Source of the DNA: Alphaproteobacteria bacterium
GTDB lineage: Bacteria; Pseudomonadota; Alphaproteobacteria; Bin95
Assembly (NCBI GenBank): GCA_964291285.2
Contig: OZ219787.1
Span: forward strand, 1,536,001 to 1,600,000
Length of the DNA stretch: 64,000 nt
Direction of reading: 5' to 3'
Shown here: in pieces, positions 1-52,748 of the stretch
Position numbering within the stretch: position 1 is the stretch's first letter
Layout: each line of letters begins with the position of its first letter
Notes under the pieces: generated by a model
Database searches by the model: none
What the model was told of the DNA's origin: nothing
Seen by the model: only the letters and a program-made list of their open reading frames with translations
Translations under genes and position numbers: made by a program

Positions 1-3000
1 AGCGCGAATGGCCGGCGGTGTTCGACGCTGCATCGAGAGCCGAGGCCGCCGTCCATGCCGACCCGCGGACGGCCTGCTTCTACGCCCGCCGCGCATTGGA
101 GCTAGCGGTGAACTGGGCCTACAAGCACGACGCGGCGCTCCGGCTGCCCTATCGGGACAACCTTTCGGCCCTGATCCACGAGCCGAGCTTCAAGCAGGCC
201 GCTGGCGATGCGGTGTTCAGCAAGGCCAGGGTCATCAACACGCTGGGCAATCGCGCGGTGCACGGCTATCGCGCAGTGCCGGAAGCTGACGCGCTGGCGG
301 CGCTGCGCGAACTCTTCCACGTGACCTATTGGTTTGCCCGAACCTACGCCCGCGCCGCGCGCCCAGCGCCTGGACTTACGTTTGATCCTGCGGCGCTGCC
401 CCGCCCTGCGGTGACCAGTCGGAAGACTGCGGAGCAATTGCGGGCGCTCGAGGGCGGACTCCGGGAGCGCGACGAGAAGCTCACGACGCTGCTCGCGGAC
501 AAGGGTGCTCTCGACGAGGAGCTCAAGCGCCTGCGGTCCGAGGTGGCCGAGGCCAAGAAGGAAGCGGCCGCTCAACCGGACACGCACGACTACTCCGAAG
601 CGGAGACTCGCGACTACTTCATAGATCTGTTGCTGAAAGAAGCCGGCTGGCCGCTCAATCAGGATCGCGATCGCGAGTTCGAGGTCAGCGGGATGCCGAA
701 TGCCACGGGCCAAGGCTTCGTGGATTACGTCCTTTGGGGTGACGACGGCAAGCCACTTGGGCTCGTCGAGGCCAAGCGCACGCGCCGGGATGCCCGCGTC
801 GGGCAGCGGCAGGCCGAACTCTACGCCGATTGCCTAGAATGCCAATTCGGGCAGCGGCCGATCATTTTCTACTCGAACGGCTATGAGCATTGGATCTGGG
901 ACGACATACGCTATCCGCCGCGCAGCGTGCAAGGCTTCTACAAGAAGGAGGAGCTGGAGCTCCTGATCCAAAGGCGGGAGACGCGGCGCTCGCTGGCGGA
1001 AGCCACGATTAATTCGGAGATCGTCGAGCGCCACTACCAGACGCGTGCTATTCGCCGCATTGGGGAGGCCTTCGAGCGCGACCACGACCGCAAGGCCCTG
1101 CTCGTGATGGCGACGGGTGCTGGCAAGACACGCACGGTGATCGCGCTCTCCGACCTGCTCATGCGTTGCAACTGGGCCAAGCGCGTGCTTTTCCTCGCCG
1201 ACCGGGTAGCGCTGGTGAATCAGGCGGTCAATGCCTTCAAGCGTCACTTACCCGATGCCTCACCCGTCAACTTGGTTACCGAGAGAAACGTCGAGGGACG
1301 AGTCTACGTCTCGACCTATCCGACCATGATGGGGCTCATCGACGAGGCGAGAGATGGCGAGCGTCGCTTCGGGGTGGGTCATTTCGACCTGGTGATTATC
1401 GACGAGGCACACCGCTCGGTATTCCAGAAGTACCGCGCCATCTTCGACTACTTTGATTCGCTGCTGGTCGGGCTCACGGCGACTCCCAAGGATGAAGTAG
1501 ACCGCAATACCTACAGCTTGTTCGAACTGGAGAACGGAGTGCCGACCGACGCTTACTCCTTGGAGGAGGCTGTGCGTGACGGCTACCTCGTGCCCCCCAA
1601 GGCCGTCTCGGTGCCGCTCAAGTTCCAGCGCGAGGGCATCACGTACAACGAGTTGTCGGAGGACGAAAAGGACCAGTGGGACGCGCTGGAATGGGACGAC
1701 GACGGCACTGTGCCCGACCGGGTCGCGGCCGAGGCGGTCAACAAGTGGCTGTTCAATAGGGACACCGTGGACAAGGTGCTGGAGCACCTTATGACCCGTG
1801 GCCTCGCGGTCGCCGGCGGCGACCAGCTTGCCAAGACAATCCTTTTCGCCAAGAACCAGGAGCATGCGGAGTTCATCGCCGAGCGCTTCAACGCCAACTA
1901 TCCGCACTACAAAGGCGCGTTCGGACGTGTCATTACCTTCAAGACGGAGTACGCGCAGAGCCTCATCGATAACTTCTCGAACAAGGAGAAAGACCCACAC
2001 CTCGCGATTTCGGTGGACATGCTCGACACCGGCATCGACATCCCCGAGGTCGTGAACCTGGTTTTCTTCAAGCTGGTGCGCTCGAAGACCAAATTCTGGC
2101 AGATGGTGGGACGCGGCACGCGGCTCTGTCCTGATCTGTTCGGCCCAGACCAAGACAAGGAATTATTCTATATCTTCGACTATTGCCAAAACCTCGAATA
2201 TTTCAGCCAAGACATCCCGGCTACCGATGGCTCGGTCATCGAACCGCTCGGCAAGCGCCTGTTCAATGCGCGGTTGGAATTGATTGCGACATTGGACCAT
2301 CATGCTTGGGAAGGCGAATCGGATGAGCTCAAAGAGCCCGCGTCCTCCTACGGCGATCCAGAAACGAACGCCGCGGTTCGTCGATCTCTCGCCGATCTCT
2401 TGCACCGCGAAGTCGTGGCGATGAATGTGAACAACTTCGTGGTGCGCCCACAGCGGCGACTCGTCGAGAAATATGCGAAGCCTGAAGTCTGGGTGTCACT
2501 GCCGGCAGAGGCCCTGACTGAGCTCTCGAACGAATTAGCCGGACTGCCTTCGGAGTTAGACCCGGAGAAGGAGGAGGCCAAGCGGTTCGACCTGCTCGTG
2601 CTGAATCTGCAGCTCAGCCTCCTGCGACACGAGCCCGGCTTTGCCCGGCTGTGCGACCGGGTCAAGCAAATTGCCGCACTGCTTGAGGAAAAAGCCGCTA
2701 TCCCGATGGTGCAGGCCCAGATGGCGCTCATCCAGGACATACAGGCCGACGAGTGGTGGCAGGACGTCACTGTCCCGATGCTGGAAGTCATGCGTCGCCG
2801 GCTCCGGAGCCTGGTCCAGTTTATCGACAAGCAACAACGTAGGCCGGTCTACACGGATTTCGAGGACCTCATGGGCGGTGAGACAGCCGTGGACCTGCCC
2901 GGCCTCGCCCCCGGCACGGACTACGCGAAGTTCTTGGCCAAGGTACGTGCATTTCTTCGCGACCACATGGACCATGTCGCCATTGCAAAACTGAGATTGA

Positions 3001-3392
3001 ACAGACCGCTCACGGCGACCGACCTCTCAGAGCTGGAGCGGATGCTCATCGAGAGTGGCCTCGGCGGGGCGAGCGAGCTTCAACGTGCGGCAGAGGAGTC
3101 CCAGGGACTCGGATTGTTCGTGCGGTCGTTGGTAGGCATGGATCGCAGTGCTGCTAAGGAGGCCATGAAGACGTTCCTTGTGGGTAAGTCACTCTCGGCC
3201 AACCAGATCGAGTTCGTGAACCTCATCGTCGATCACCTTACGGAGCACGGCATTGTCGCTCCTGATCGTCTCTACGAATCCCCGTTCACCGACATCACGC
3301 CTCACGGACCGGATGGCTTGTTTCGGCCTGAGGAATTGGATGAATTGATGCAGGTGCTCAAGACTCTGCGAGACGCAGCCATTGCGGCATGA
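1..3392 (+). CDS. hsdR: Type I restriction-modification endonuclease subunit R (EcoEI-like DEAD-box helicase/nuclease); 5' end probably just upstream of the window
   Basis: Nuclease motif VDYVLW...VEAKR, Walker A MATGAGKT, DEAHRS, LTATP, QMVGRGTR and C-terminal LYESPFT. The frame is open back to the window edge (REWPAVFDAA). Confidence 0.93.
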   Translation, partial: REWPAVFDAASRAEAAVHADPRTACFYARRALELAVNWAYKHDAALRLPYRDNLSALIHEPSFKQAAGDAVFSKARVINTLGNRAVHGYRAVPEADALAALRELFHVTYWFARTYARAARPAPGLTFDPAALPRPAVTSRKTAEQLRALEGGLRERDEKLTTLLADKGALDEELKRLRSEVAEAKKEAAAQPDTHDYSEAETRDYFIDLLLKEAGWPLNQDRDREFEVSGMPNATGQGFVDYVLWGDDGKPLGLVEAKRTRRDARVGQRQAELYADCLECQFGQRPIIFYSNGYEHWIWDDIRYPPRSVQGFYKKEELELLIQRRETRRSLAEATINSEIVERHYQTRAIRRIGEAFERDHDRKALLVMATGAGKTRTVIALSDLLMRCNWAKRVLFLADRVALVNQAVNAFKRHLPDASPVNLVTERNVEGRVYVSTYPTMMGLIDEARDGERRFGVGHFDLVIIDEAHRSVFQKYRAIFDYFDSLLVGLTATPKDEVDRNTYSLFELENGVPTDAYSLEEAVRDGYLVPPKAVSVPLKFQREGITYNELSEDEKDQWDALEWDDDGTVPDRVAAEAVNKWLFNRDTVDKVLEHLMTRGLAVAGGDQLAKTILFAKNQEHAEFIAERFNANYPHYKGAFGRVITFKTEYAQSLIDNFSNKEKDPHLAISVDMLDTGIDIPEVVNLVFFKLVRSKTKFWQMVGRGTRLCPDLFGPDQDKELFYIFDYCQNLEYFSQDIPATDGSVIEPLGKRLFNARLELIATLDHHAWEGESDELKEPASSYGDPETNAAVRRSLADLLHREVVAMNVNNFVVRPQRRLVEKYAKPEVWVSLPAEALTELSNELAGLPSELDPEKEEAKRFDLLVLNLQLSLLRHEPGFARLCDRVKQIAALLEEKAAIPMVQAQMALIQDIQADEWWQDVTVPMLEVMRRRLRSLVQFIDKQQRRPVYTDFEDLMGGETAVDLPGLAPGTDYAKFLAKVRAFLRDHMDHVAIAKLRLNRPLTATDLSELERMLIESGLGGASELQRAAEESQGLGLFVRSLVGMDRSAAKEAMKTFLVGKSLSANQIEFVNLIVDHLTEHGIVAPDRLYESPFTDITPHGPDGLFRPEELDELMQVLKTLRDAAIAA

Positions 3393-4342
3393 CCGCGATG
3401 CCGACGCCGGACGTAGGCCTTCGCGGGGACAGGGGTGTTCATATGGAGACGGCCTGGCGGAGCGCCCTGGGCAAGGATTGCCGGGGCAGCCGCCCGCGAT
3501 GCATCCGGCTTGTGGATGGGACGAGAGGCGAGGTTGCAGCCCGACTGACTGGCCTTGTCGGTCTTCCGGAAGTGGTGGTCACGGAAAGAGACTTCTGGAT
3601 GCCCTACGGGAAACCGGTGTGGGCGAACGGGCAGTGGGATAAGAAACCTGCGGCAGAGACCCGGCTTGACCGTGACGCCGGCTTCCTCGCCCCGGAATTG
3701 CGGCGACGGCTCCAACGCTGGTGGCTGGAGGTTCCGAAGGGAGCGAATACTCCGAACTGGGATCTGGCCGCCACTTGCCGGATCGAAGGAAGAAAAGGCC
3801 TGCTCCTCGTGGAAGCTAAGGCTCACACGAACGAGCTGTCGGATGCCGGCAAGTCGACGTCGGCCAAGGAGAACGGGCGGCGGAACCACAAGCGGATCGG
3901 TTCAGCGATCGAGGAGGCTCGAAGTGGTCTCGGACGCCTGCCGGGCGGATCATGGGGCCTCTCCCGGGACGCTTGCTATCAGCTGTCCAACCGGTTCGCA
4001 TGGTCCTGGGAGCTGGCCATGCTCGGAGTGCCTGTCGTTCTGGTCTATCTCGGCTTCCTGAACGCCGAAGACATGGCGAGGGATGGCACGCCGTTCCGGT
4101 CGGGGGATGATTGGGCCACCGCCATGAAGAAGCACGCACGAGGGATCGTGCCCGAAACCTGCTGGGGACGGCGGCTGGTCCTGAACGGTACGCCCTTCAT
4201 ACCATTAATCCGAGCATTGCATGTACCGTTGACGCCGAACGTGCAGCAGCCGCCCTCCTCGTGGAAACACTCCGCCGTCGAGGACGACGACGTCAGATTG
4301 CGTCCCCCGGCGACCATGGCACCCTCTTGCGATCGTTCCTAG
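3389..4342 (+). CDS. Hypothetical protein, putative PD-(D/E)XK nuclease
   Basis: PNWDL...LLVEAKAH motif and YQLSNR. ATGA overlap with the hsdR stop. Exact start and the C-terminal tail are uncertain. Confidence 0.55.
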   Translation: MTAMPTPDVGLRGDRGVHMETAWRSALGKDCRGSRPRCIRLVDGTRGEVAARLTGLVGLPEVVVTERDFWMPYGKPVWANGQWDKKPAAETRLDRDAGFLAPELRRRLQRWWLEVPKGANTPNWDLAATCRIEGRKGLLLVEAKAHTNELSDAGKSTSAKENGRRNHKRIGSAIEEARSGLGRLPGGSWGLSRDACYQLSNRFAWSWELAMLGVPVVLVYLGFLNAEDMARDGTPFRSGDDWATAMKKHARGIVPETCWGRRLVLNGTPFIPLIRALHVPLTPNVQQPPSSWKHSAVEDDDVRLRPPATMAPSCDRS

Positions 4343-4412
4343 ACTCGACTAATTTGCCAACCGGTGCTACTCAAAAGCGTCCATGAGCCCAGCGATGAGG
4401 AACGATAATATC

Positions 4413-4616
4413 ATGGATCACATCCTATTGGCACGTGCAACGCGCAAGCCATATGCTGAATCTCCCGAGATTGAAGCCGGCGTCCGCTACGACAGCGAAA
4501 AAGGGTACTGGCTGTCAGGCGCGGAGCCTCTAGTTTCAACTGACAACTTCCTTGCGACTGACCCCACCACAAAGAAATGTGATGTGGAAACCGGCGAAGA
4601 CCAGAAAGGCGAATGA
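4413..4616 (+). CDS. Putative graspetide (ATP-grasp RiPP) precursor peptide
   Basis: Short ORF (ATG 4413; alternative 4383) with a T/K/D/E-rich C-terminus TDPTTKKCDVETGEDQKGE. Its stop overlaps the ATP-grasp ATG (ATGA). Confidence 0.75.
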   Translation: MDHILLARATRKPYAESPEIEAGVRYDSEKGYWLSGAEPLVSTDNFLATDPTTKKCDVETGEDQKGE

Positions 4617-5554
4617 CACCTCGCGTCCTTATCCTATCTGGCCTCTATGATTTTTCGACCGACTTAGTCGTACTCGAGCTGGAAAGGGCGCGTGTTCCAT
4701 ATCTAAGGGTCAACCGCGAACATCTCTCTGAGCACCTGTTTGCCCTTGATCCCATTGCAGAAGAGCTCCGGGTTACAGGCCCGTCCGGTCGATCTATAGT
4801 TGGCCCTGACTTGGCTTCGGTATGGTTCCGACAGCCGGTTTTTTTGCGAAATACTCCATCTACACCACTATCTCCGTATGAGCAACTTGAGCGTTCCCAA
4901 TGGACAGCATTCATGAGGGCTCTCTGCGTTTTCCAGAATGCTCATTGGGTGAATCATCCTGCTGCTACCTATATCGCAGAGTCTAAACCATATCAGCTGT
5001 CAGTGGCTTCCCGATGCGGCTTTCAGGTTCCTAAGACATTTGCTACCAATGACGTCTCTATAGTTCACACCGAATTCCCAGATCAGCTAATAGTAAAATC
5101 CTTGGATACCGTTTTGCTAAGGGATGGCGACGATTGTCTATTTACATATACCACTGTTGCGGATGGATCTACTCTATCCGCTGCTGAGGTAAAGCCTGTT
5201 CCAATGCTTGCACAGAGATACCTGAAGGACAAAAGCGACTTGCGAGTCACTGTTATCGGTGATACAATCTTCGCAGTACGAATTTTGTCTGATGGCGATG
5301 GGATCGTTGGGGATTGGCGAACCCTACCAAAGGAACAACTACAGTATGTTGATATGGAGCTCGACGAAAACACAAAAAAATCATGTTTTGCCCTTACCAG
5401 TGTTCTCAATCTGTCATTTGCGGCGATTGACTTAGTGGATACGCCGCATGGTATCTTTTTCGTTGAGATAAATCCGACAGGTGAATGGGGATGGTTATCA
5501 AAAAAAGATAGGCGCATAGATGTAGCAATAGCGTCTGCATTAGCTTGCCCATAA
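4613..5554 (+). CDS. MvdC/MvdD-like ATP-grasp peptide maturase
   Basis: Motifs SVWFRQP, WVNHP...ESKPYQL, VPKTFATND, DLRVTVIG, DWR, FAAIDL, FFVEINPTGEWGWL. Confidence 0.9.
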   Translation: MTPRVLILSGLYDFSTDLVVLELERARVPYLRVNREHLSEHLFALDPIAEELRVTGPSGRSIVGPDLASVWFRQPVFLRNTPSTPLSPYEQLERSQWTAFMRALCVFQNAHWVNHPAATYIAESKPYQLSVASRCGFQVPKTFATNDVSIVHTEFPDQLIVKSLDTVLLRDGDDCLFTYTTVADGSTLSAAEVKPVPMLAQRYLKDKSDLRVTVIGDTIFAVRILSDGDGIVGDWRTLPKEQLQYVDMELDENTKKSCFALTSVLNLSFAAIDLVDTPHGIFFVEINPTGEWGWLSKKDRRIDVAIASALACP

Positions 5555-5563
5555 TGCGGTAAC

Positions 5564-6238
5564 ATGGGACATCCATTTGCAGCTCGATGCGTTGAAGAAT
5601 TGGTTCCGTTTCTTCAGTATTTCCGCGCCAAAAAGAAGTTGCTTGAAAAATGTTCACAGCAGGACATATTGTTATCGGAAGAATTTACGGAGTACAAAAC
5701 ACTTGACGAGGAGACTCTTGCGGAAAGAATAAAAGATGAGCGTATTCGCGCAATTGCGCTTGACGAAAAGACATTCAAATTCACTATGGCTTTTACTATA
5801 ACTTTTGCAGTGTTTGCACTTGCAGTGTCTTTAGTTGTCCGTGGAAACCACCCAGAGTATGTCATTGTAGCGGCAGCGCCAGGAGTACTTTACCTCTTCG
5901 GAGCGGGGTTTCTAGCCCTTGGAGCAATGAGGACATTGCCATCGTATGGATACGGTACACATTTCAAGCTTCTTGTCAGAGAGCGCAAGGTTGCAGCGTT
6001 GGCGGAGGCGTTGGCTCGTCAGGAAACCATGAATCTGGTGCGACACGTGAGAAACGAAACGTCGCTTATGGCGGCACGAAATGGCTTCGTATGGATTGGC
6101 GCCTGTTTAGTCGTGTTGGTAATCGCGGCAGTCCTAGAAGTATCGGGGTTGAACGAAATGCTGCAAGGACCGTCGGGGCCGAGCCGGTGTTGGACTAGCA
6201 ATAACTGGGTCGGCGACGAGGCCGGGAGCATGACATGA
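5564..6238 (+). CDS. Hypothetical membrane protein (about 3 TM helices)
   Basis: Three hydrophobic segments; starts 10 nt after the ATP-grasp gene; same lower-GC composition. Confidence 0.75.
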   Translation: MGHPFAARCVEELVPFLQYFRAKKKLLEKCSQQDILLSEEFTEYKTLDEETLAERIKDERIRAIALDEKTFKFTMAFTITFAVFALAVSLVVRGNHPEYVIVAAAPGVLYLFGAGFLALGAMRTLPSYGYGTHFKLLVRERKVAALAEALARQETMNLVRHVRNETSLMAARNGFVWIGACLVVLVIAAVLEVSGLNEMLQGPSGPSRCWTSNNWVGDEAGSMT

Positions 6239-6355
6239 CGGAGAACCGGAGTAAGGGGAACGAAGACAGCCTTTGGCACAAGGTTGATAAAGCTGAGGCG
6301 GTCGCGTTTGGTCGTGTCCCCAGGGGTGGTGTAGGAGCTGAAGCTTCCGGTGGTA

Positions 6356-6423
6356 GCTGTGGGTAAGTGGCCCGCCGCCGCGACCGTCTGGAGTCAGGCG
6401 GCGGCGGGCCACTTACCCACAGC
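6356..6423. repeat. Perfect 26-bp inverted repeat (16-nt loop) in the IS256 leader
   Basis: GCTGTGGGTAAGTGGCCCGCCGCCGC at 6356-6381 and its reverse complement at 6398-6423. Confidence 0.9.
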
Positions 6424-6488
6424 GGAGGCCATCGCGGTGCCGGTTAGGGTTGGGCTGTCACAGTCCACCTGACCGGAGGAGTACCACG

Positions 6489-7691
6489 ATGACCACCACC
6501 GACATGATGACCCTGCGGGCGCTGTTGGAGAAGAGTTCCGACGCCGACCTGCTTCGCGAGATGATCGGGTTCACGGCCGCGCGTCTGATGGCGCTTGAGG
6601 TTGAGGGCCTTGCGGGCGCCGCGCACGGCGAGCGCTCGCCGGACCGGATCACGCAGCGCAACGGCTACCGGGACCGGGTCTGGGAGACGCGGGCCGGCAC
6701 GGTCGAACTGAAGATCCCGAAGCTGCGCAAGGGGAGCTACTTCCCGGGCTTCCTTGAACCGCGGCGGATGGCGGAGAAGGCGCTGACGGCGGTGATCCAG
6801 GAGGCCTACATCAAGGGCGTATCGACCCGCTCGGTGGACGACCTGGTGCAGGCGATGGGCATGTCGGGCATCTCCAAGAGCCAGGTGTCGCGGCTGTGCG
6901 GCGAGATCGACGACAAGATCCGCGACTTCCTCGACCGGCCGCTGGAGGGCGACTGGCCGTATCTCTGGCTTGACGCGACCTATGTGAAGATGCGCGAGGC
7001 CGGGCGCGTCGTCTCGGTCGCGGTCACCATCGCGGTGGCGGTCAACGATCAGGGCCGGCGCGAGGTGCTCGGCATGGCGATCGGCGCGTCCGAGGCCGAG
7101 ACCTTCTGGACCGACTTCCTGCGCTCGCTCGCCCGCCGCGGCCTGCGCGGCGTCAAGCTGGTGATCTCCGACGACCACAAGGGCCTGAAGGCCGCCGCCA
7201 CCCGCATCTTCGGCGCCACCTGGCAGAGATGCCGCGTCCACTTCATGCGCAACCTGCTCGCCCATGCCGGCAAGCAGGGCCGGCGCGTCGTCTCCGCCTT
7301 CGTCACTACCGCCTTCGCCCAGGAGGATGCAGACAGCGCCTCCGCCCAGTGGCGCCAGGTCGCCGACCAGCTCAGGCCCAAGGCGCCAAAGCTCGCCGCC
7401 ATCATGGACGAGGCCGAGCACGATGTTCTCGCCTACATGACCTTCCCGGCCGCGCACCGCGCCAAGCTGCACTCGACAAACCCGCTCGAACGCCTCCACG
7501 GCGAGATCAAGCGGCGCACAAACACCGTCGGCATCTTCCCCAACGAGGACGCCATCACCCGGCTGATCGGCGCAATCCTGCTCGAGCAGAACGATGAATG
7601 GGCAGTCCAGAGAGCCAGATACATGACACTGGAATCCATCGCTCCCGTGAGCGACAATACAACCGTCAAGTTGCCCGCCGTGGCAGCCTGA
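6489..7691 (+). CDS. IS256-family transposase
   Basis: [30 protein letters not shown] and STNPLERL motifs; GGAGG RBS. Confidence 0.97.
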
Positions 7692-8727
7692 GCGTTCCGG
7701 CCCTACCCGCCGGACACCGCTACGGACGCCAGGCTCTTACACCACCCGCGGGGGCACGATCTCGCGTTTCGACGAAGGATGGGTAGAGTGGGGAATAGGT
7801 TGAGGTCGCACTTGGTTCGTCTTGCGAAGGTGCAGGAGGAGGCGGGTGGCGGCGTGGCAGGACACCTGAGTGGCGGTGCAACGCTTATAAGGTCAGGAGA
7901 CCGAAGGGGTCTGCTGACGGCGGCACATAACGTAGTGTGCAAATTTCCAAGAAAAACGACGTCGTTTATTGGTCAATCTATGGAGGTATTGGTAGGAACA
8001 TTTCGGCCAAATCAGATGGCCGTGGTTACAGTGGACTTATCAGGTGCGGTAATAGAGGGGGGAATATATGAACGAGGGGATGAAAGGGAGATCGGGCCAG
8101 ACATAGCTTGGATTCCATTGGATGACGACTCGGCAAATAGAATTGAAAAATATGGACGAGTCTTCTTTAACTTGCACGAGGGTAGATTTCCGGGGATTGT
8201 GGACAAGGATAGTACAGCCGTCGAAACAAATGGTGGCATGTATGTTGGATATTTAGTTACCGGGTTTAGCGGAGTGCGGGAAGAAATTGTTCGACATGAG
8301 CATGGGCCAGGTATTTTGGAGCTTGCTCAGGATGTATATCCATATGAGGATCGGTGGAGGGCTGGAGGGTGGGATTATGAAATTAGAGTTATTGAGGACG
8401 GTAGCGAGGTCGATGATGAGAATTTCATTTTAGATTTGAGTCTTCCGCAAGCTGTCCGAAGTAGGATCCCGACTCGGGTGGAGAGATTGGGTGGTCTAAG
8501 CGGTGGTGGGTTATGGATATTTGGGGAAGACAAGGATTTGAGACAATATGTGGATCTGGTCGGAGTGGTATGGTACCAGAGCGGCAGTCATGAGCACGAC
8601 ACTTCGCTTCGTATTGTGAACCATGGAAGGGCGAGTATAGATCGCATCATCGGCGGCAAGAGGACAGGGTGATAGGGGAACTGGTTCATACGGGAGCGGT
8701 TATGGCTAATCGGCCGCCCTCACCCAT

Positions 8728-9903
8728 TTAGTTGCTGTGCAAACCACCCGCCATCGCCGCGGCGATGGTCGTTCCGACGCGCTCCGCTGCGCTCTCGACT
8801 TCGCGGTCTCCGACGTGGGCATACCGCAGCGTCATGGTCGGCTGCGTATGACCAAGCATTCTGGCGACGGTCGGCAGGGGAACGCCCCGGGCCACGGCCT
8901 GGCTCGCTACGGTATGGCGCAAATCGTGCAGGCGCACATCCTCGATCTCGGCTTCTCGCCGCGCGCGTTGCCAAAGCCCGAGATTACGCGACTGCGGCCT
9001 CGCCGGGTCCCTGGGCGAGGGAAAGACGAAGGCGCTTCCCGTTCGCGGCTGGCGGGCGATGATGGCCTGCGCCGCCTCGCTCAGCCAGACCGTGCGCGGC
9101 CCGGTTTTGGCCTCGGCCAATCTGAGCATGTCGCTATCGACCTCCGACCATCTGAGCGTCAGGATTTCACTCTTCCGGCAGCCGGTCAGCAAAAGCAGGC
9201 GGACGACGTCGGCCTGCGGCAGGCGCGAGGGCCGTTTCTCCACCAGCCGGTCCAGGGTCCGGTGAAGCCGGGCTATCTCTTCCGCGGACAGGAAGCGGGT
9301 CATCTTCCGGCCCGGGTTCGGCCTGACACCTGCAAGCGGATCGGTCCCGACATGGCCGGCGATTTTCGCGGCACTGACGATCTGGCGCAACACGACAAGC
9401 GCGATGTTGGCCGTGCCCGGCGTCTTGCGGCTCATGTTGTCGAACCAGCGTTCAACATGAGGCCTGCCGATGCGGTCGAGGCGAAGCGCCCCGAAGGCGG
9501 GCAGAAGCCGGGTCCGGATCATGCGGTCCACACGCTCGCCCCAGCCTTGGCTGTAATGGCCCCGGCGTGCCGGCAGCCAGTCCTCCATGACGAAATCCCG
9601 GAAAAGGGGGACGGCAGCCCGGCCGGCAGGGTCTCCGGAGCAAAGCGGATGCGAGCCGTCCAGCAGGGACCGGCATGTGATCCGGGCTTCTGCCACCGTG
9701 GTCAGCGCGGCCGCGCCGATGGTCGTCCGCACCGGCCTGCCGTTCACGGTCCCATGCCAGACGAAACTGCGATGCCCGGAAGGACGGACCCGCACGCCCA
9801 GCCCGGCAACGCGAATGTCCCTGACGATGTATTCGGTACTGCCGGGACGCAGTTTCCTGACAGCGGCGTCCGTCAGGCGGACCTTCTTCGCCTTGCCCGT
9901 CAT
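8728..9903 (-). CDS. Tyrosine recombinase/integrase (second of pair, element 1)
   Basis: N-terminal arm-binding-like domain; LLTGCRKSEI, HDLRH, LGH and RYAH catalytic motifs. Confidence 0.95.
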   Translation of the reverse strand: MTGKAKKVRLTDAAVRKLRPGSTEYIVRDIRVAGLGVRVRPSGHRSFVWHGTVNGRPVRTTIGAAALTTVAEARITCRSLLDGSHPLCSGDPAGRAAVPLFRDFVMEDWLPARRGHYSQGWGERVDRMIRTRLLPAFGALRLDRIGRPHVERWFDNMSRKTPGTANIALVVLRQIVSAAKIAGHVGTDPLAGVRPNPGRKMTRFLSAEEIARLHRTLDRLVEKRPSRLPQADVVRLLLLTGCRKSEILTLRWSEVDSDMLRLAEAKTGPRTVWLSEAAQAIIARQPRTGSAFVFPSPRDPARPQSRNLGLWQRARREAEIEDVRLHDLRHTVASQAVARGVPLPTVARMLGHTQPTMTLRYAHVGDREVESAAERVGTTIAAAMAGGLHSN

Positions 9904-11027
9904 GACTGCGCGCCCGAGAGCAACGGCGCCAGCGCCTCGACCGTCTCCCGGACCGTGGCGTCCGAGAGATGCGCGTATTTCAGCGTCGTCGCCGCGTTGT
10001 CATGGCCCAGCAGCCGCCCCACCGTGCGGATCGTCTCGCCGCTCGACAGCGCCATGCTGGCGTAGCTGTGCCGCGTGTCATGAAGGCGCATGTCGTCAAG
10101 GCCTGCCTCGGCGCGCAGCTGTATCCAGAAGGCGTCCAGCCAGCCCCATGGCGTGCTCCAGCCTCCAATAGGGAACACGAAGCGCGACGAACGCGGCAGG
10201 CCATCGAGGACCTCCCGCGCCGCTTCGCACAACCAGACCGTGCGGGGACCGGTCTTCGAATCGGCCAGATAGAGCCTGCCGTCGCGGTAGAAGCGCCATT
10301 CGAGGGTGACGATCTCCGACTTCCGGCAGCCGGTCAGCAGCAGCAGGCGCAAGGCCGCAACCCGGAACGGTTGCCGGGCCTCATGCCGGTCCAGCGCCAT
10401 GCCAAGGCGGCGGTATTCCTCCGGCGACAGGAATCGCTCCGACCGCTTCTGCCGGTAACGCCGGATGCCCTTGCAGGGATTGCCGCCGTCGGGCCGATAC
10501 CCCCACGCCTCGGCCTGCTGCATGATGACGGAAAGAATAGGCGCCGAACGGTTGGCTGCCGCTGGTGTCGCATGGAGGGAGCGGAACCAGCGCTGCACCT
10601 CCTCCCGGTCGATCTCGGCGACAGGCCGGCCCGCGAAGAAGGGCAGGATCTGGTTTTGCAGATAGCGGCGGTTGACGGCGAGCGTGCGCGGCTTCCAGCG
10701 CCTGCCGTAGCGGGTGAAGACCTCCTCGGCGACGGTCTCGAACAGCGCGTCTCCGGATACCTCCGCTTCGACATCCCTGTCGTCCCGGAGCGCGGCCAGC
10801 ATGGTCCGGGCGCGGGCACGCGCCTCGGCCTCGGTCATGACCGCCGCATCGCCGACGATCTTCCAGACCCGGTGGCCCCGGTGCTGGCTGTGGATGAAGT
10901 AGCGTTTCGTGCCCGAAGGCATGATGCGGACGCCGTATCCCTTCAGTTCGGCGTCCCTGACATTGCGGACGGTCTTGCGGGGCCGGAGGGTATCGACCCG
11001 GCGCTGGGTGAGGCGGATGGCTGCCAC
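9900..11027 (-). CDS. Tyrosine recombinase/integrase (first of pair, element 1)
   Basis: LLTGCRKSEI, HDTRH, LGH and KYAH motifs; GTG start aligned with the paralogue at 43157; ATGA overlap with the partner gene. Confidence 0.93.
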   Translation of the reverse strand: MAAIRLTQRRVDTLRPRKTVRNVRDAELKGYGVRIMPSGTKRYFIHSQHRGHRVWKIVGDAAVMTEAEARARARTMLAALRDDRDVEAEVSGDALFETVAEEVFTRYGRRWKPRTLAVNRRYLQNQILPFFAGRPVAEIDREEVQRWFRSLHATPAAANRSAPILSVIMQQAEAWGYRPDGGNPCKGIRRYRQKRSERFLSPEEYRRLGMALDRHEARQPFRVAALRLLLLTGCRKSEIVTLEWRFYRDGRLYLADSKTGPRTVWLCEAAREVLDGLPRSSRFVFPIGGWSTPWGWLDAFWIQLRAEAGLDDMRLHDTRHSYASMALSSGETIRTVGRLLGHDNAATTLKYAHLSDATVRETVEALAPLLSGAQS

Positions 11028-11116
11028 GATTGCGGTTCCCCGATCAGTTGCACGGTGTGCAAAGCCGGATTCGCTCCAACGCCCCGGTTGCACCGGAAAC
11101 GGGAAAATTCCACAAT

Positions 11117-11145
11117 CATGTCAGATGGTTAGCACCGCAGGTGCG
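11117..11145 (-). mobile_element. Terminus of tandem-integrase element 1
   Basis: Minus strand CGCACCTGCGGTGCTAACCATCTGACATG nearly matches the element 2 end CGCACCGGTGGGTGCTAACTATCTGACATG at 43038. Confidence 0.75.
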
Positions 11146-11261
11146 GCGAGATGTGTGTGTGCGTTAGGCTCGGGGACGGGGACAGGCGGGGTCCGGGGGG
11201 ATGATTGAGATTGCGAACGAGTCTGCTTCAGCCCGAACGGAATGCGCCCTTGTCCATCCCC

Positions 11262-11471
11262 CTACGCCGCCTTCCGTGCGCCTTCCTTCTTCGGAAGATT
11301 GAACAGGCGGGCAGCGTTTCGGCCGAGGATGTTGCGCTTCTGGTCTTCGGTGAGGAACGGGATGTCGTAGATCGCGCGCGGTGCCGAACTGAATATCTCC
11401 AGCCTTGCCACATCGCAGCGCCGACACAGCGCGGCCAGTTCTTCCTTCTTGTCGGCGGTGACGGCTTGCAT
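11262..11471 (-). pseudogene. Chimeric remnant: MNT-type nucleotidyltransferase N-terminus joined to an amidohydrolase C-terminus
   Basis: DKKEELAALCRRCDVARLEIFSS (MNT-like) followed directly by IYDIPFLTEDQKRNILGRNAARLFNL (amidohydrolase_2-like end). Confidence 0.6.
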
Positions 11472-11592
11472 GGCGCCGACCTCCCGCAATTGTGAAACGC
11501 AGGGCCCCCTGCAGCTTCGGACCGTACGTACTGCAAGCCGGGACGCAAGCATCGCACTGGCCCGGCAATTGGAACGATGAACTCCCTGCACC

Positions 11593-41392: not shown

Positions 41393-42169
41393 TCAGCCGC
41401 CGGCGGCGAAGGAGGAGCGGAAGGCCCAGCGGGTGGTGCGCATCTCGATGAAGGCGAACAGCGCATACATGGCGATGCCCTCGATGGCGAGCGCGATCAG
41501 CCCGGCGAAGACGAGCGGCATCTGGAAGTTCGTGCCCGCGACGCTCATCAGATAGCCGATGCCGGAATTCGCGGCGATCGTCTCGGAGACGACGGAGCCG
41601 ACGAAGGCCAGCGTGATCGCGACCTTCAGCGAACCGTAGAAATAGGGCTGGGCGCGGGGGATGCCGACCTTGAGGATGATGTCCAGCTTGCGCGCGCCCA
41701 GCGCCCTCAGCACGTCTTCCAGTTCGGGCTCCGTGGTGGCGAGGCCGGTCGCGACATTCACCACGATGGGGAAGAAGGAGATCAGGAAGGCGGTCAGGAT
41801 CGCCGGAATCTCGCCGATGCCGAACCAGATGACGAGGATCGGCACGACCGCGACCTTGGGGATGGAGTTGAAGCCGACCATGACCGGGTAGAGCCCCCGG
41901 TAGATCGCCCGCGACCAGCCGACGATCATGCCGAGGACGACGCCGAACGCGACCGCGATCGCGAAACCGGCGAGCGTCGTCCACATGGTCGCCCCCGAAT
42001 GCCGGAGCAGCGGTTTCCAGTGCGTTATCGTGGCCTCGACGATGGCGGACGGCGCCGGAAGGATAATCGGGTTGACGCCGAAGAGCTGGCAGACCGCCTC
42101 CCAGAAGACGAACAGGCCGAGCGTGAACGCGAACGGGGCCGTCCGCTCGAAGAACGACGCCGGCGTCAT
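41393..42169 (-). CDS. ABC transporter permease (NitT/TauT family)
   Basis: ILPAPS, IPKVAVVP and an EAA-like loop. Confidence 0.92.
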   Translation of the reverse strand: MTPASFFERTAPFAFTLGLFVFWEAVCQLFGVNPIILPAPSAIVEATITHWKPLLRHSGATMWTTLAGFAIAVAFGVVLGMIVGWSRAIYRGLYPVMVGFNSIPKVAVVPILVIWFGIGEIPAILTAFLISFFPIVVNVATGLATTEPELEDVLRALGARKLDIILKVGIPRAQPYFYGSLKVAITLAFVGSVVSETIAANSGIGYLMSVAGTNFQMPLVFAGLIALAIEGIAMYALFAFIEMRTTRWAFRSSFAAGG

Positions 42170-42927
42170 TGCCGGACCTCCGAGATGCGGCTGCGCAGGT
42201 CGTGCACGATATCCACGAACTCGGGCTCGAAGCAGACGTCGAGCTCGCGCGGCCGCGGCAGGTCGATGGCGCGCGAGGCCACGATCCTGCCCGGCCGCGC
42301 GCTCATGACATGGACCGTGTCGGCGAGAAACGCGGCTTCGCGCAGATCGTGCGTGACCAGAACCACGGTGAAGCCGATCCGCGCCCAGAGGTCGCGCAGC
42401 ACGCACCAGAGCTCCTCGCGCGTGAAGGCGTCGAGGGCCGCGAACGGCTCGTCCAGCATCAGCAGCGCCGGCTCGTGGATGAGCGCGCGGCAGAGCGAGG
42501 TCCGCTGCTGCATCCCTCCCGAAAGCTCCCAGGGAAAGCGCTCGGCGAAGCCGTCGAGGCCGACCAGCGCCAGCAGCCTGTCCGCGCGTTCGGCGTATTC
42601 CGCCCTGTTCCTGCGGAAGCGCCGGCGGTGCGGCTCGACGATCTCCAGCGGCAGCAGGACATTGTCCCGGATGGTCCGCCAGGGCAGCAGGTTCGCGTTC
42701 TGGAACGCCATGCCGGCGATCTTGACGGGCCCCTCCACGGCGGCCCCGTCCACCGCTATGCGTCCCGCGGTCGGCCTGACCAGCCCGGTGGCGAGCTTCA
42801 TCAGCGTGGACTTGCCGCACCCCGAAGGGCCGACCACGGCGGCGAAGGCGCCGCGCCCGACATTCAGGTCCAGCCCCTGGACCGCGGTGACGCCGCCGCC
42901 GGAGGCGCCCGCATAGGTGAGGGTCAC
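42166..42927 (-). CDS. ABC transporter ATP-binding protein (NitT/TauT family)
   Basis: GPSGCGKST, LSGGMQQR and LDEPF motifs. The true start may be ATC at 42945. Confidence 0.93.
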   Translation of the reverse strand: MTLTYAGASGGGVTAVQGLDLNVGRGAFAAVVGPSGCGKSTLMKLATGLVRPTAGRIAVDGAAVEGPVKIAGMAFQNANLLPWRTIRDNVLLPLEIVEPHRRRFRRNRAEYAERADRLLALVGLDGFAERFPWELSGGMQQRTSLCRALIHEPALLMLDEPFAALDAFTREELWCVLRDLWARIGFTVVLVTHDLREAAFLADTVHVMSARPGRIVASRAIDLPRPRELDVCFEPEFVDIVHDLRSRISEVRQ

Positions 42928-42982: not shown

Positions 42983-43037
42983 CTAAAGCCGGCGGTCCGC
43001 CGCGGGAGGCAGATAGGACGAATCGAAGACCGCCGAG
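42983..43037 (-). pseudogene. Detached 3' end of the ABC substrate-binding gene (SAVFDSSYLPPAADRRL*)
   Basis: Joins in frame to ...FTNRPEP at 51293 across a shared GAG. Confidence 0.85.
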
Positions 43038-43156
43038 CGCACCGGTGGGTGCTAACTATCTGACATGGCGTTGTTTTTTCTCCCGAAATGCAGCGGTCGG
43101 GCAAGCGGGTCGCAAGGGCCCGTTCCCCGGCTGCAACCGGAGCCGGGAGAAACGCA

Positions 43157-44281
43157 ATGGCGAAGACTACCCTCACCGAGGTCCGCGTGAAGGCGCTCAA
43201 ACCCCGCAGGTCCGTCCGCGAGGTCCGCGACGGCAGGCTCAGGGGGTTCGGCGTCCGTGTGTCGCCCTCGGGCCGCAAGCAGTTCTTCATTCACTGCCAG
43301 CATCGCGGCGTGCGCATCTGGAAGATCGTCGGCGACGCCGGGTCGATGAGCGTCACGGACGCGCGGGCGGCGGCTGCGGAGATGCTTGCCGTCATCAGGC
43401 GCGGCGGGGAGGCGCCGCTCACGCCGGGCGAGACGCTCTTCGAGGCCGTAGCCGGGATCGCGTTCCGCCGTCACGAGGGCGTCTGGAAGCCCGGAACGAT
43501 GATCGTGAACCGCAACTATCTGTGCAACCAGCTTCTGCCGCATTTCGCCGGGCGGCAGATCGCGGATATCGACCGGCAGGAGGTGAGGAACTGGTTCGCC
43601 CGCCTGCGCGCGACGCCGGTGGCGGCGGACCGGTCGATGCCGGTGCTGTCCGTCATCATGAGGGAGGCGGAGGCCATGGGCCTGCGCCCGGAAGGGTCCA
43701 ATCCCTGCCGGGGGATAAAGCGTTACCGCCGCAAGGGCCGCGAGCGGTTCCTCCCGGACGAGGAAATCCGCCGCCTGTCCGGGAGGCTCAAGGCGCATGA
43801 GGCCCGCTGGCCGCAGCATGTCGCCGTCATCCGCCTGCTGCTGCTCACGGGATGCCGCAAGGGCGAGATCCTCACCCTGCAATGGTCCGACTACCGGGAA
43901 GGCCGCCTGTTTCTCCGCGACTCCAAGACGGGGCCGAGGACAGTCTGGCTGTCGGAGCCGGCCCGGGCGGTGCTTGATCGTCTCGAGCGGAAGGGACGGT
44001 GGATACTCCCGGCATCGAGGGGCGACCGGCCCCGGAGCGGGTGCTGGCTGTTCCACTTCTGGAACCGGGTCCGCGCCGAGGCGGACCTGGAGGACGCCCG
44101 CCTTCACGATTTGCGCCATACGCATGCGAGCCTTGCCCTCAGGCAGGGCGAGACGGTGCTCGCCATCGGCAAGCTGCTGGGCCACCGCAGGCCGGAAACC
44201 ACGCTGAAATATACCCATGTCGCCGACGCCATGGTGCAGGACGCAGCCGAGACGGTCGGCGCCGTGCTGGAGGCAGACTGA
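43157..44281 (+). CDS. Tyrosine recombinase/integrase (first of pair, element 2)
   Basis: LLTGCRKGEI, HDLRH, LGH and KYTH motifs; paralogue of 9900-11027. Confidence 0.95.
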   Translation: MAKTTLTEVRVKALKPRRSVREVRDGRLRGFGVRVSPSGRKQFFIHCQHRGVRIWKIVGDAGSMSVTDARAAAAEMLAVIRRGGEAPLTPGETLFEAVAGIAFRRHEGVWKPGTMIVNRNYLCNQLLPHFAGRQIADIDRQEVRNWFARLRATPVAADRSMPVLSVIMREAEAMGLRPEGSNPCRGIKRYRRKGRERFLPDEEIRRLSGRLKAHEARWPQHVAVIRLLLLTGCRKGEILTLQWSDYREGRLFLRDSKTGPRTVWLSEPARAVLDRLERKGRWILPASRGDRPRSGCWLFHFWNRVRAEADLEDARLHDLRHTHASLALRQGETVLAIGKLLGHRRPETTLKYTHVADAMVQDAAETVGAVLEAD

Positions 44282-45426
44282 TGGCGGGCCGGGAACGGAT
44301 GAAACTCACCGACGCCGCCGTCGCCCGTCTCCGCCCCCGCGAGCGGGAATATACGGTCTGGGACACGCGCATCGCCGGTCTCGGCGTCCGGGTGCGGCCC
44401 ACCGGCGGGCGCAGCTGGGTGCTGCTGCTCGACAGGGGCGGGCGCACCAGGCGCATCTCGCTCGGCCCGGTCGGCGTGAAGAGCCTGGAGGAGGTTCGCA
44501 GGGAATGCCATGCCCGCAAGGCGAACCCCGAGCCGGAGAAAGAGGCCCGGCCGGCGCAGCCGGTCCCGCTGTTCCGGGATTTCGTCGCCGGTCCATGGAA
44601 GGAGGCGCATTTCGACGGCTACAAGCCCTCGACGCAGAGGACCGCCCGCTATCAGCTTGCGGGCCAGCTCCTGCCGGCATTCGGATCGAAGCCGCTGGAC
44701 CGCATCGGCGAGGCCGCCATCCGGCGCTGGTTCGAGCGATACAGCCGCACCTTGCCGGGCAACGCCAATCCCTGCCTTGCCCGTCTGCGGCAGATACTCA
44801 ACTTCGCCCTCGCCTGCGGCCACATCGAGGTCAATCCCGTCGGGCGCATCGCCCCGAACCGCCGCACGGCGCTCACGCGGTTCCTGTCCCGGGAGGAACT
44901 CGCACGCCTCCATGCCGCCCTGGACGCGCAGACCCGGAAGAGCGCGCGGCAGCAGGCCGACATCGTCCGCCTCCTGCTGCTGACCGGCTGCCGCAGAAGC
45001 GAGATCACGGGCCTCGGCTGGTCGGAAGTCCGCGAGGACGGGCTGGCGCTCACCGATGCCAAGACCGGACCGAGGACGGTCCCGCTCGGCAGCCGGGCCC
45101 GGGCCATTCTCGACCGGCAGCCGCGCACGGGCAGCGCGTTCGTGTTTCCCTCGCCGCGCGACCCCGCCCGCCCGCGCAGCCCGGACCTGCCGCTCTGGTA
45201 TCGGGTGCGCCGCGAAGCCGGCATCGGGGATGTCCGCCTTCATGACCTGCGCCATACCATGGCCAGCCATGCGGTCATGAACGGCGTGCCGGTCCCGGTG
45301 GTCTCCCGCCTGCTCGGCCATTCCGATGTTCGCATGACGCTGCGCTACGCCCATCTCGCCGACCGCGACATCGAAGCCGCCGCGGATCGCGTCGGGCAGG
45401 CCATGAGCGCCATCATGGAGACATGA
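44281..45426 (+). CDS. Tyrosine recombinase/integrase (second of pair, element 2)
   Basis: LLTGCRRSEI, HDLRH, LGH and RYAH motifs; TGATG coupling; paralogue of 8728-9903. Confidence 0.95.
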   Translation: MAGRERMKLTDAAVARLRPREREYTVWDTRIAGLGVRVRPTGGRSWVLLLDRGGRTRRISLGPVGVKSLEEVRRECHARKANPEPEKEARPAQPVPLFRDFVAGPWKEAHFDGYKPSTQRTARYQLAGQLLPAFGSKPLDRIGEAAIRRWFERYSRTLPGNANPCLARLRQILNFALACGHIEVNPVGRIAPNRRTALTRFLSREELARLHAALDAQTRKSARQQADIVRLLLLTGCRRSEITGLGWSEVREDGLALTDAKTGPRTVPLGSRARAILDRQPRTGSAFVFPSPRDPARPRSPDLPLWYRVRREAGIGDVRLHDLRHTMASHAVMNGVPVPVVSRLLGHSDVRMTLRYAHLADRDIEAAADRVGQAMSAIMET

Positions 45427-45531
45427 CCGGGGCGGCCGCGGCAGACCCGCTTCTTCATGAGCGGATGGCGCCGGTCTTCTTCCTGCGCCGCACCCGGCGA
45501 CGGTGAGGTTCCCTGCTATCGTCGTGTCCGG

Positions 45532-46782: not shown

Positions 46783-46898
46783 GAAAACCCCTGTCCGTGC
46801 AAAGGGAACCTCCGGCCGCCCGGAGGGCGCCGGAGGAAAGAAGGCCCCGGCCGCGCGAAGCGGCCGGGGCCCGGGAACGCGGAGGCTACGGGAGCCGG

Positions 46899-48624: not shown

Positions 48625-48706
48625 CGAACCCTTCTCCTTCCTTCTCTCAAGCCCGGACAGACCGGGCAAACCGTTTGAACCGTTCCTTCGTCGCGCGAAC
48701 CGCAGG

Positions 48707-49888: not shown

Positions 49889-50229
49889 CGTCTCGTCTCC
49901 TTCAGGTGAAAGCCCGTCCGCAGCGCCCGTCGACCGCCGCACGCCGGAGAAGGCGCACGACGGGGCGGCAGGTCACCGGGGACGGGAGGTGAAGCCGCGG
50001 CCCCGGAAAGGCCGCGGCAGAAAGCGTGCCGGGGAAAGCCGGGCCGCCCGCAAGGCGGTCATGCCGCAAGCGCGGCGGGCGCGCTCCCCGGCAACGTATC
50101 CATCTGCACGCGCCCGGCGATCCTCCGCAGAGGACGCACGGGCGGGAAACACGGAAGTCAGGCGGGAGCCGCTCTCCCGAAAGCGAACCAGCAGACCGGC
50201 GCCAAAAGCCCGCATATGAAAGACATGAA

Positions 50230-50278
50230 GAGGCGCGAGGCGCGAGGCGCGAGGCGCGAGGCGCGAGGCGCGAGGCGC
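50230..50278. repeat. Tandem heptamer repeat (GAGGCGC)x7
   Basis: Seven perfect copies read directly from the sequence. Confidence 0.97.
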
Positions 50279-52278: not shown

Positions 52279-52748
52279 GGGTTTCGTTCTCCCGTTCTGT
52301 GAAGCTGCGCGCAACGCCTCGACGCCGCACGTCGCAAATGAACCTTGCAGGGCCCGCGCCGGGGCCTGCCCGCCCGCCGCAAGTCCTTGTCCGGCCGGAC
52401 GCATCATCCTCCGTTCGAGCGCGCGGCGGAAGGCGAAAATCGCATCGGCGCGCCCGATGCGGGTATTTTTTCGTCAGTCTGCCGCATGTGAACTCTTTTT
52501 ATAAATGCGGGGTTGATTTTATATCTGGATAGCCTATGTTCCCTCTCCATGGGTATAAAATGGGAACAAATGGAAAGATGACCTGACGCTGCGAAGCGCG
52601 TGCGGCATGAGCCGCCTTGTGGCGCTACTCGGGATTTCGAAGGGCGAAACCGGCCTCGGGGCCGGACAGGGTAGGTGCGTGCGCCGGCCGCGGGGGTACC
52701 GACCGACCTGTCGTAATTCGGGGTGCGCAGCCTGGCCGGGGAGGGGCG

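Follow-up and report, generated by a model that had tools for sequence, protein, structure and literature searches.

Several kinds of bacterial mobile element rely on more than one tyrosine recombinase. According to the sections of the source cited here, the SEs of Gammaproteobacteria (SE-6283 and SE-6945) encode two catalytic recombinases, IntA and IntB, at their left end, are bounded by short and imperfect inverted repeats and differ in cargo; insertion takes place at selected sites, and the elements carry 6 bp of flanking sequence to the next site, where it is placed at attR, and need four core genes, intA-tfp-intB-srap, with no SEs found by the authors in Alphaproteobacteria (PMC10214605). 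The same sections describe GInt as islands whose movement depends on several proteins of the tyrosine-recombinase type, with the genes grouped at one end, and which leave no empty site in some strains; these need ginA, ginB, ginC and ginD, of which three are recombinase-like, and the authors likewise found none in Alphaproteobacteria (PMC10214605). Tn554, which is site-selective, is moved by a pair of tyrosine recombinases and takes along a 6-bp footprint of its former site (PMC10214605), its TnpA being a simple recombinase without an arm-binding domain (PMC8138268). RIT elements, which are multi-recombinase elements found in multiple copies in Alpha- and Betaproteobacteria (PMC3414803), have three simple recombinases, again without an arm-binding domain (PMC8138268), and BIM of Cupriavidus combines a tyrosine recombinase with a conserved partner with a predicted SMC domain, as far as the cited parts of the sources treat these elements (PMC3414803). 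Here we describe a family of mobile elements that carries, next to a conserved left end, two overlapping genes for P4-type tyrosine integrases, intA and intB (A and B for short). Two of its loci, copy 1 and copy 2, lie in the 64,000-nucleotide stretch of DNA analysed here (the window), which corresponds to G000:C3:1536001-1600000, G000 being the alphaproteobacterial host genome (6.1 Mb, 68% G+C, five contigs, C1-C5). Coordinates given without a contig refer to the window.

An earlier annotation made from the letters only (the sequence-only reading) had proposed two diverged, full-length and catalytically complete integrase pairs, and both the Pfam domains and the catalytic positions bear this out. 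In copy 2, intA (43157-44281, + strand) encodes a 374-aa P4-type tyrosine integrase, with the ATG downstream of a GGGAGA ribosome-binding site taken as the start, and intB (44281-45426, +) encodes another of 381 aa, the ATG of which overlaps the intA stop codon (TGATG). The genes of copy 1 are on the other strand, with intA at 9900-11027 (-), in an open reading frame (ORF) open from 11093 with a likely GTG start at 11027, and intB at 8728-9903 (-), encoding 391 aa from an ATG that overlaps the intA stop codon (ATGA). All 4 window proteins match Pfam Arm-DNA-bind_3, Phage_int_M (SAM-like; Phage_int_M/SAM_3 in the case of copy-2 intA) and Phage_integrase above the curated cut-offs, and only sub-threshold Xer and integron matches were obtained with NCBIfam. 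The 4 proteins are invariant at the catalytic positions R, K, HxxRH and H..Y and combine the arm-binding Arm-DNA-bind_3 domain, the SAM-like central domain and the R-K-H-R-H-Y catalytic domain typical of P4-type integrases. The 2 IntA proteins are 55% identical, and A and B share 37-38% identity. Neither copy is located at a tRNA gene, as had been stated, there being no tRNA gene in the 64-kb window. Ahead of intA, both loci display the same left end: the 20-mer GGTGCTAACYATCTGACATG has 2 matches in the window, at 11117-11136 (-) and 43048-43067 (+), and none in 100 shuffles, and is preceded by CGCACC and 3 or 4 nt. The left-end motif can be written as CGCACC-N3/4-GGTGCTAAC(Y)ATCTGACA and is situated 118-119 bp from the likely intA start at both loci, in agreement with the initial estimate of about 120 bp.

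Copy 2 spans 43038-51292 (8255 bp), and its junction, previously only asserted, is demonstrated by the empty sites of relatives. Among the copy-2-type copies of the host genome, similarity starts sharply at 43038, the C of CGCACC, and ends a few dozen bases past the intB stop codon, beyond which the sequence differs in each copy. The left end (43038-43065, +) reads CGCACC-GGTG-GGTGCTAACTATCTGACA, with a GCACC/GGTGC inverted pair and an 11-bp box, ACTATCTGACA. The right end is a module of ~520 bp (~50770-51292, +) containing the 19-mer TGTCAGATAGTGCCCTAAC at 51240-51258, its single occurrence in the window, followed by N20, TTTACACC (51279-51286) and the N6 CCTGAG (51287-51292); the inverted ACYATCTGACA box that had been predicted is present here, at 51240-51250. 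On the left, the target is kept as AGACC (ACACC in some relatives) with the N6 GCCGAG (43027-43037, +), and on the right the flank begins with GGCTCC at 51293 and adjoins the left flank in relatives, the empty site of which reads ACACC or AGACC, then GCCGAG and, directly after it, GGCTCC. The 2 flanks abut in all 11 orthologous loci from other species of the genus: 8 junctions were read (for example, GTCGAACACCGCCGAG running directly into GGCTCCGGCC) and those of L003, L005, and L012 follow from adjacent coordinates. The insertion site lies between 2 genes of an ABC transporter operon.

Many copies in the host genome lie within repeated sequences, so that uninterrupted paralogues serve as empty sites. 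In one such paralogous target, 24 uninterrupted rows read CCACACCGCGCC followed directly by GGTCTTCG, whereas in 4 occupied rows CCACACCGCGCC is followed by CGCACCGGTGGGTGC. The right junctions, found via the right halves of empty sites, read TGTCAGATAGTGCCCTAAC-N20-(A/T)TTTACACC-N5/6 up to the flank. Two further elements, X (C3 1616819) and Y (C1 1171129), have empty sites in relatives at 9/9 and 7/9 loci, respectively, with the remaining 2 loci of Y (L058, G005:C145; L062, G007:C3) covering the left flank only. Separately, an end-motif match was noted right beside the element-Y site (G005:C145:13676-13691), which may be occupied in another species. Irrespective of the flank, all copies share the same base-precise boundaries, and ACACC with the next 5-7 bp is found at both junctions and once in the empty site. 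In the host genome, ACACC is located 5-8 nt before CGCACC in 17 of the 23 left ends (a hand count over rows that are not independent). In other genomes, the 70 distinct flanks from the best 80 of 287 loci (described below) have ACACC 5-7 nt ahead of CGCACC in 63 cases (5 nt in 13, 6 nt in 45, and 7 nt in 5), whereas the motif is present in 0/140 control windows placed 20 or 30 nt further upstream, which speaks against the low target specificity suggested by the sequence-only reading. Between ACACC and CGCACC, the six bases vary, and the last of them shows a weak bias toward purines. A search of 17 genomes of the genus for a natural end-to-end joint, TTTACACC-N5-7-CGCACC, returned 1 match only, which was rejected as an ordinary left junction whose target reads TTTACACC.

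The bases that follow ACACC agree at the two ends of some elements and differ in others. In 4 left-right pairs (C1 412430 to 448714, C2 1395579 to 1406574, C3 123454 to 145001, and C4 518077 to 508065), the N5/6 is the same at both ends and in the empty site. In copy 2, the hexamer at attL (GCCGAG) is of the target type and that at attR (CCTGAG) is foreign; in element X, attL reads AGCGAG, the target type in 9/9 loci, and attR reads AGAGAG. The C5 400404 to 390364 pair displays CGAGAG and CGGGAG, but its paralogous targets vary and the polarity is unreadable. Left modules that are 100% or 99.7% identical sit at GGTGAG, CGAGAG, and AGCGAG. Since the N6 differs in copy 2 and single bases differ in 3 other elements (X, the C5 pair, and Y, considered below), a brought-in overlap is apparently tolerated, and we read the hexamer as a putative strand-exchange region that would favour identity while tolerating mismatches.

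The presence of the family twice in the window, as initially described, proved correct for the window but far too low for the genome: tblastn against the host genome revealed 84 integrase genes of this kind, namely 38 tandem pairs and 8 partial or solitary genes. The order is A then B in all 24 pairs of the copy-1 and copy-2 families (first gene 57-100% identical to copy-1 or copy-2 intA), and both ORFs are open in 24/24 pairs examined. Full catalytic motifs are present in 23/23 A and 22/23 B proteins, the remaining B being truncated; 1 pair, C2_637158, was left out of this set and of the dN/dS set by the motif filter. Over 248 comparisons of A, the median pairwise ratio of nonsynonymous to synonymous substitution rates (dN/dS) is 0.32, and over 247 comparisons of B it is 0.37, indicating that intA and intB are both under purifying selection. 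Pattern scans recovered 23 left ends and 14 right ends, the latter being exactly the set that an nhmmer profile retrieved. In two cases, a pair of 2.4-kb left modules is 100% identical but located in different flanks, and one identical left-module pair stays 99.96% identical over 13.6 kb from ACACCACGGC on; C1_201958 and C2_434361 are 100% identical copies with unrelated flanks and a common ACACCACGGC. Element sizes range from ~8 to 39 kb. One intact 11-kb element (L025, G000 C2:1395001-1407200, locus 3966-10787) has a single 2273-aa ORF as its main cargo and also carries a weak GIY-YIG-like ORF. Two additional tandem-pair families are present in the host genome (for example, at C3:141217-143471 and C3:1343258-1345613). 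The first has 11 copies, 96-99.9% identical, with a left boundary reading ACACC-CGACG-CATCCTTGATGCA and without the CGCACC/GGTGC motif; the second has 3-4 copies, and its 2 genes are each other's closest relatives. As for sequencing runs, three 'organism A' runs contain 0.49-0.61 of the sampled words and ten metagenome runs contain 0.05-0.07 of them, values that are silent on habitat and activity.

Scanning of GTDB representative genomes with an IntA alignment yielded 287 relatives, of which the best 80 loci (68-84% identity) were used; these are all metagenome-assembled, are mostly labelled Alphaproteobacteria, Defluviicoccus or Rhodospirillales, and often number several per genome. Among these best 80 of 287, a B-type gene follows A in 77 of the 79 loci with room for it, and the end motif is found within 260 nt upstream of A in 74/75 loci. 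The proposal that a conserved end and an ordered A+B pair mark a family is thereby upheld, the same motif also bounding the copy-2 insertion. A 16-mer of the end occurs in 14 of the 16 other genomes of the same genus, 0/10 genomes of a second genus and 4/10 of a third, with none for the reversed control. In a class-wide sample, the end motif (one mismatch) is present in 12/400 other genomes, and as the reversed control matches about as many, these matches represent background, except for G335. This genome has 5 end-motif copies, with one locus reading ACACC-ACTCAA and then CGCACC-TTC-GGTGCTAAC, followed by A and B each 71% identical to the copy-2 proteins, and is a true relative. Three loci in records titled Dehalococcoidia or Chloroflexota (L115, L145, and L153) have intA 71-74% identical to alphaproteobacterial copies, and the flank of L115 is the same as that of 3 loci of one alphaproteobacterial genome, which points to either transfer or mis-binning.

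More distant A-B pairs extend the module beyond this group. Overlapping integrase pairs are encoded on Paracoccus versutus pTAV1, the Shewanella oneidensis MR-1 megaplasmid, Photobacterium damselae pPHDD1, and a Vibrio europaeus plasmid, where they are annotated just as 'site-specific integrase'. The first genes of the plasmid pairs score higher with A and the second genes with B. In the maximum likelihood tree, one clade (support 89/90) unites the first genes from copies 1 and 2, 2 other host subfamilies and the 3 gammaproteobacterial plasmids, and a separate clade (support 92/92) unites their second genes and the second Paracoccus gene; the first Paracoccus gene is on a long branch without clear placement, and the 2 genes of the family called the 36% family are nearest each other. 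The tree also included the 43% family, with the labels of its first and second genes exchanged. The separate A and B clades, which include the plasmid pairs, indicate that the A-B module is older than this genus.

Copy 1 is delimited on the left side. Its left junction (11140-11156, -) comprises ACACA (11152-11156), the N6 TCTCGC (11146-11151) and CGCACC (11140-11145), and its left end continues with TGC-GGTGCTAACCATCTGACATG (11117-11139, -), so that the junction reads ACACA-TCTCGC on the target side and CGCACC-TGC-GGTGCTAACC on the element side. Two sisters (C4 713731-716121 and C3 1382884-1385155) are 88% identical to copy 1, over window 8756-11146 only. No inverted-box/right-end pattern was found in window 1-8800 for copy 1, nor in the 64 kb beyond copy 1 and the 2 sisters; a second copy of each sister's ACAC-N6, searched as a right-end mark, gave none, and the nhmmer profile built from the 14 known right ends returned those 14 only. 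Empty-site searches for the sisters yielded no right end, and neither did those for a copy-1-type element in genome G016, where the sole full-length match is 70% identical and leads into unrelated DNA. On the outer side, the locus in relatives begins to match only at the TauD gene in 15 of the 16 other genomes of the genus (those giving a match), implying that window 11147-11590 is not native to the locus and that synteny is lost; this segment between copy 1 and TauD contains a fragment that matches part of a gene on contig C5 at 93% identity. On its other side, copy 1 is followed by an ORF with no known family (7779-8672), a 1452-bp Mutator-family insertion sequence (IS; Transposase_mut, 6310-7761) with ~25 genome copies, most at 99.9% identity, unknown ORFs and an ATP-grasp ORF, and a type I restriction R subunit (3-3392; PADLOC REase_I, 7.8e-170), which runs off the window start. 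With the right end not found and the outer flank non-native, the suggested extension of copy 1 over this defence cassette is conjectural. The Mutator-family IS has a perfect 26-bp inverted repeat with a 16-nt loop just inside its left part (6356-6423), and its end region contains an ACACC-ACGGC site used by one two-integrase element.

The cargo of copy 2 consists of genes for outer-membrane proteins and ORFs without known family. It includes, all on the minus strand, a surface lipoprotein assembly modifier (Slam; 45532-46782, Pfam SlipAM, 1.4e-19), 2 ORFs (46899-48119 and 47971-48669) with no Pfam match and high G+C content at third codon positions, and a Gram-negative porin (48707-49942, Pfam Porin_4, 9.8e-36), besides one more ORF without a known family; no DDE transposase was found among the scanned cargo ORFs. 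A 14-bp unit, GAGGCGCGAGGCGC, is repeated in tandem at 50230-50278 inside the cargo. The insertion separates an ABC ATPase gene on the left (42166-42927, -) from a gene for an NMT1/THI5-type binding protein on the right (51280-52407, -), and as the stop codon of the latter ORF lies in the terminal TTTACACC of the element (51280-51286), its native C-terminus was replaced by the insertion. The Slam/unknown/porin block (45515-50000) recurs at 85-93% identity in several places of the genome, including C1:796406-800897, C1:55729-60193, C3:399991-404466, and C5:317122-321488. At C1:792377-802230, the block stands behind a pair of a different family (43%/40% identity) with the same kind of right end, which suggests module exchange between element families.

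The feature is a real mobile element family with variable cargo, and we consider it likely that, as a whole, it represents one family of integrative, transposon-like elements moved by a coupled A+B recombinase pair. The element is made up of the left end CGCACC-N3/4-GGTKCTAA, intA, intB, cargo, and a right module of ~520 bp, often with a small NikA-like gene, ending with TGTCAGATAGT and, further on, TTTACACC, and it is inserted precisely in ACACC-bearing targets. Under this explanation, IntA and IntB would be translationally coupled P4-type recombinases acting as a hetero-oligomer, by analogy with XerC/XerD, TnpA/TnpB of Tn554, and IntA/IntB of SEs; any two tyrosine recombinases are expected to dock, given their likeness to solved tetramers. 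The 2 ends would be joined into a circle with the joint TTTACACC-N6-CGCACC, which would recombine with the target ACACC-N6, the N6 serving as the strand-exchange (overlap) region; in the case of a mismatched overlap, one junction would keep the target N6 and the other the N6 from the previous site. Judging by the high copy number, the donor may often be retained, by copy-out or by re-integration after replication.

Several observations weigh against this explanation. Copy 1 and its 2 sisters are without a recognisable right end. One target family is split, with its left and right halves placed on separate contigs, and 14 right ends stand against 23 left ends, a shortage and a splitting which indicate that many copies are rearranged or dead. 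The hetero-oligomer, the circle, and the overlap exchange are inferred from precisely delimited insertions that have 2 conserved integrases at one end, and in the putative joint the half-sites around the N6 (ACACC and CGCACC) would be direct rather than inverted, which is unusual for a tyrosine-recombinase core. Finally, the polarity of the hexamers is not uniform: in element Y, attL reads TTCCAG and attR TTCCAC, and it is the latter that corresponds to the target type in 7/9 loci.

An alternative to classical excision and integration tolerating heterology, as in Tn916 or CTnDOT, is the strict SE route, in which one strand would be copied out into a circle with strand bias and the donor would never be emptied. 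In copy 2 and element X, the target N6 is retained at the intA-proximal end and the foreign N6 stands at the far end, the polarity given for SEs in the cited part of their description (PMC10214605), and the high copy number fits a retained donor. Element Y, however, displays the opposite polarity at one base and warns against deriving a rule from the other two, and tfp and srap, which SEs need, are absent; the 4 pairs with identical N5/6 at both ends are neutral in this respect. The strict SE route is thus a possible but doubtful alternative. Equally tentative is the more far-reaching notion that a P4-type pair has turned into a true transposase, which would act without a Tfp-, Srap- or TnpC-type helper on ACACC and a loosely matching 6-bp overlap, by copy-out with a persisting donor. 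If true, this would explain the 38 copies in one genome and would make the family the first in Alphaproteobacteria to comprise SE-like, replicative transposons based on tyrosine recombinases, in a minimal two-gene form.

The right module raises the further question of mobilization. It is 81-89% identical between copy 2 and 13 other right ends and encodes, on the strand opposite to intAB and ~390 bp from the right end, a 127-aa ribbon-helix-helix protein, the intact form of which barely passes the Pfam NikA-like cut-off (E 2.9e-6; 27.8 bits versus 27). At the 14 right ends, the gene is intact in 7, partial in 3 and absent in 4; copy 2, one of the 3, has a broken remnant at 50609-50887 (-; tblastn, 51% identity over 94 aa, frame broken). 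The 127-aa protein might serve as a directionality factor or as part of a relaxosome. The sequence-only reading had seen no conjugation genes, which has to be amended by this mobilization-type gene; no relaxase was found (oriT was not searched for). Arm-type repeats common to both ends were limited to the 11-bp inverted box ACTATCTGACA / TGTCAGATAGT. Could the elements be integrative mobilizable elements, with one protein of the pair acting as the integrase and the other as a MOB_M-type relaxase that, with the NikA-like accessory, would work on an oriT in the right module? MOB_M relaxases are kin of tyrosine recombinases, are often annotated as integrases, and are found near an integrase in 96% of cases, according to the part of the preprint cited here (10.64898/2026.01.13.699239). 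Against this, A and B both have the full three-domain integrase architecture with the arm-binding domain and all catalytic residues, the NikA-like gene is dispensed with or damaged at half of the right ends, and spread within a genome needs no transfer, which makes the mobilizable element improbable. Hardly credible is the view that the pairs are mere passengers of repeats spread by other transposons, segmental duplication or homologous recombination, the conserved end being an intA promoter or regulatory region: the genome is indeed rich in IS elements, several copies sit inside IS copies and some are clearly rearranged, but base-precise boundaries irrespective of flank, empty sites in relatives that match them exactly, a target ACACC outside the element, and identical copies in unrelated flanks already contradict it.

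The favoured explanation, an integrative element moved by a coupled recombinase pair, would change the way such genes are to be read. P4-type integrases are usually taken as markers of single-copy tRNA-linked islands, and here an obligate pair of them appears to behave like an insertion sequence, recognising a 5-bp motif, carrying cargo of 5 to >30 kb, which in copy 2 comprises outer-membrane protein genes, and reaching dozens of copies. Annotation pipelines label both genes 'site-specific integrase', and such elements therefore go unseen. The many natural insertions and empty sites provide a sequence-rich system for asking how work is divided between 2 recombinases and how much overlap identity is needed, questions likewise posed by Tn554, SE, and GInt.

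Full-text searches, with subscription journals and supplements outside their coverage, returned no description of an overlapping P4-type integrase pair acting as a transposon. With typical P4-type islands, which are single-copy and combine one integrase with one tRNA-linked site, the family shares the Arm-DNA-bind_3/SAM-like/catalytic architecture, but it differs by its obligate pair, no tRNA nearby, the 5-bp target motif, and dozens of copies. Integrases of the CTnDOT/Tn916 type tolerate heterology in the overlap, which would explain junctions with different hexamers, but these elements are conjugative, have a single integrase of another recombinase clade, and use other targets. The family matches none of the gene-content definitions of RIT, Tn554, SE, GInt, and BIM, from which it is set apart by their descriptions rather than by comparison of recombinase sequences; the initial distinction from RIT and Tn554 accordingly holds by gene content. 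BIM is rejected because both genes of our family encode recombinases, which the BIM partner does not. Unlike RIT, all 38 host loci are pairs, with both proteins arm-binding and P4-type. Tn554 differs by a third gene, tnpC, adjacent to the pair and by a large recombinase of ~630 aa, whereas the family has only 2 genes and no conserved third gene beside them; the 2 products are 374-391 aa long and both contain Arm-DNA-bind_3. GInt differs from the family, which has 2 recombinase genes only. From SEs, the family is separated by the overlap of the intA stop with the intB start, which leaves no room for tfp, by the absence of a conserved fourth gene next to the pair, and by copy number (38 pairs here versus 1-2 copies per replicon), although copy 2 and element X, unlike element Y, display the SE placement of the hexamer at attR. 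In behaviour, SE and GInt elements, which the sequence-only reading did not consider, are nevertheless the closest described relatives. The family is best placed among the multi-tyrosine-recombinase transposons, and by analogy it most likely works like elements of the RIT, Tn554, SE, and GInt type, with which it has in common that several tyrosine recombinases are encoded at one end, that the termini are short inverted sequences and the cargo varies, that targets are selected, and that a hexamer is carried over.

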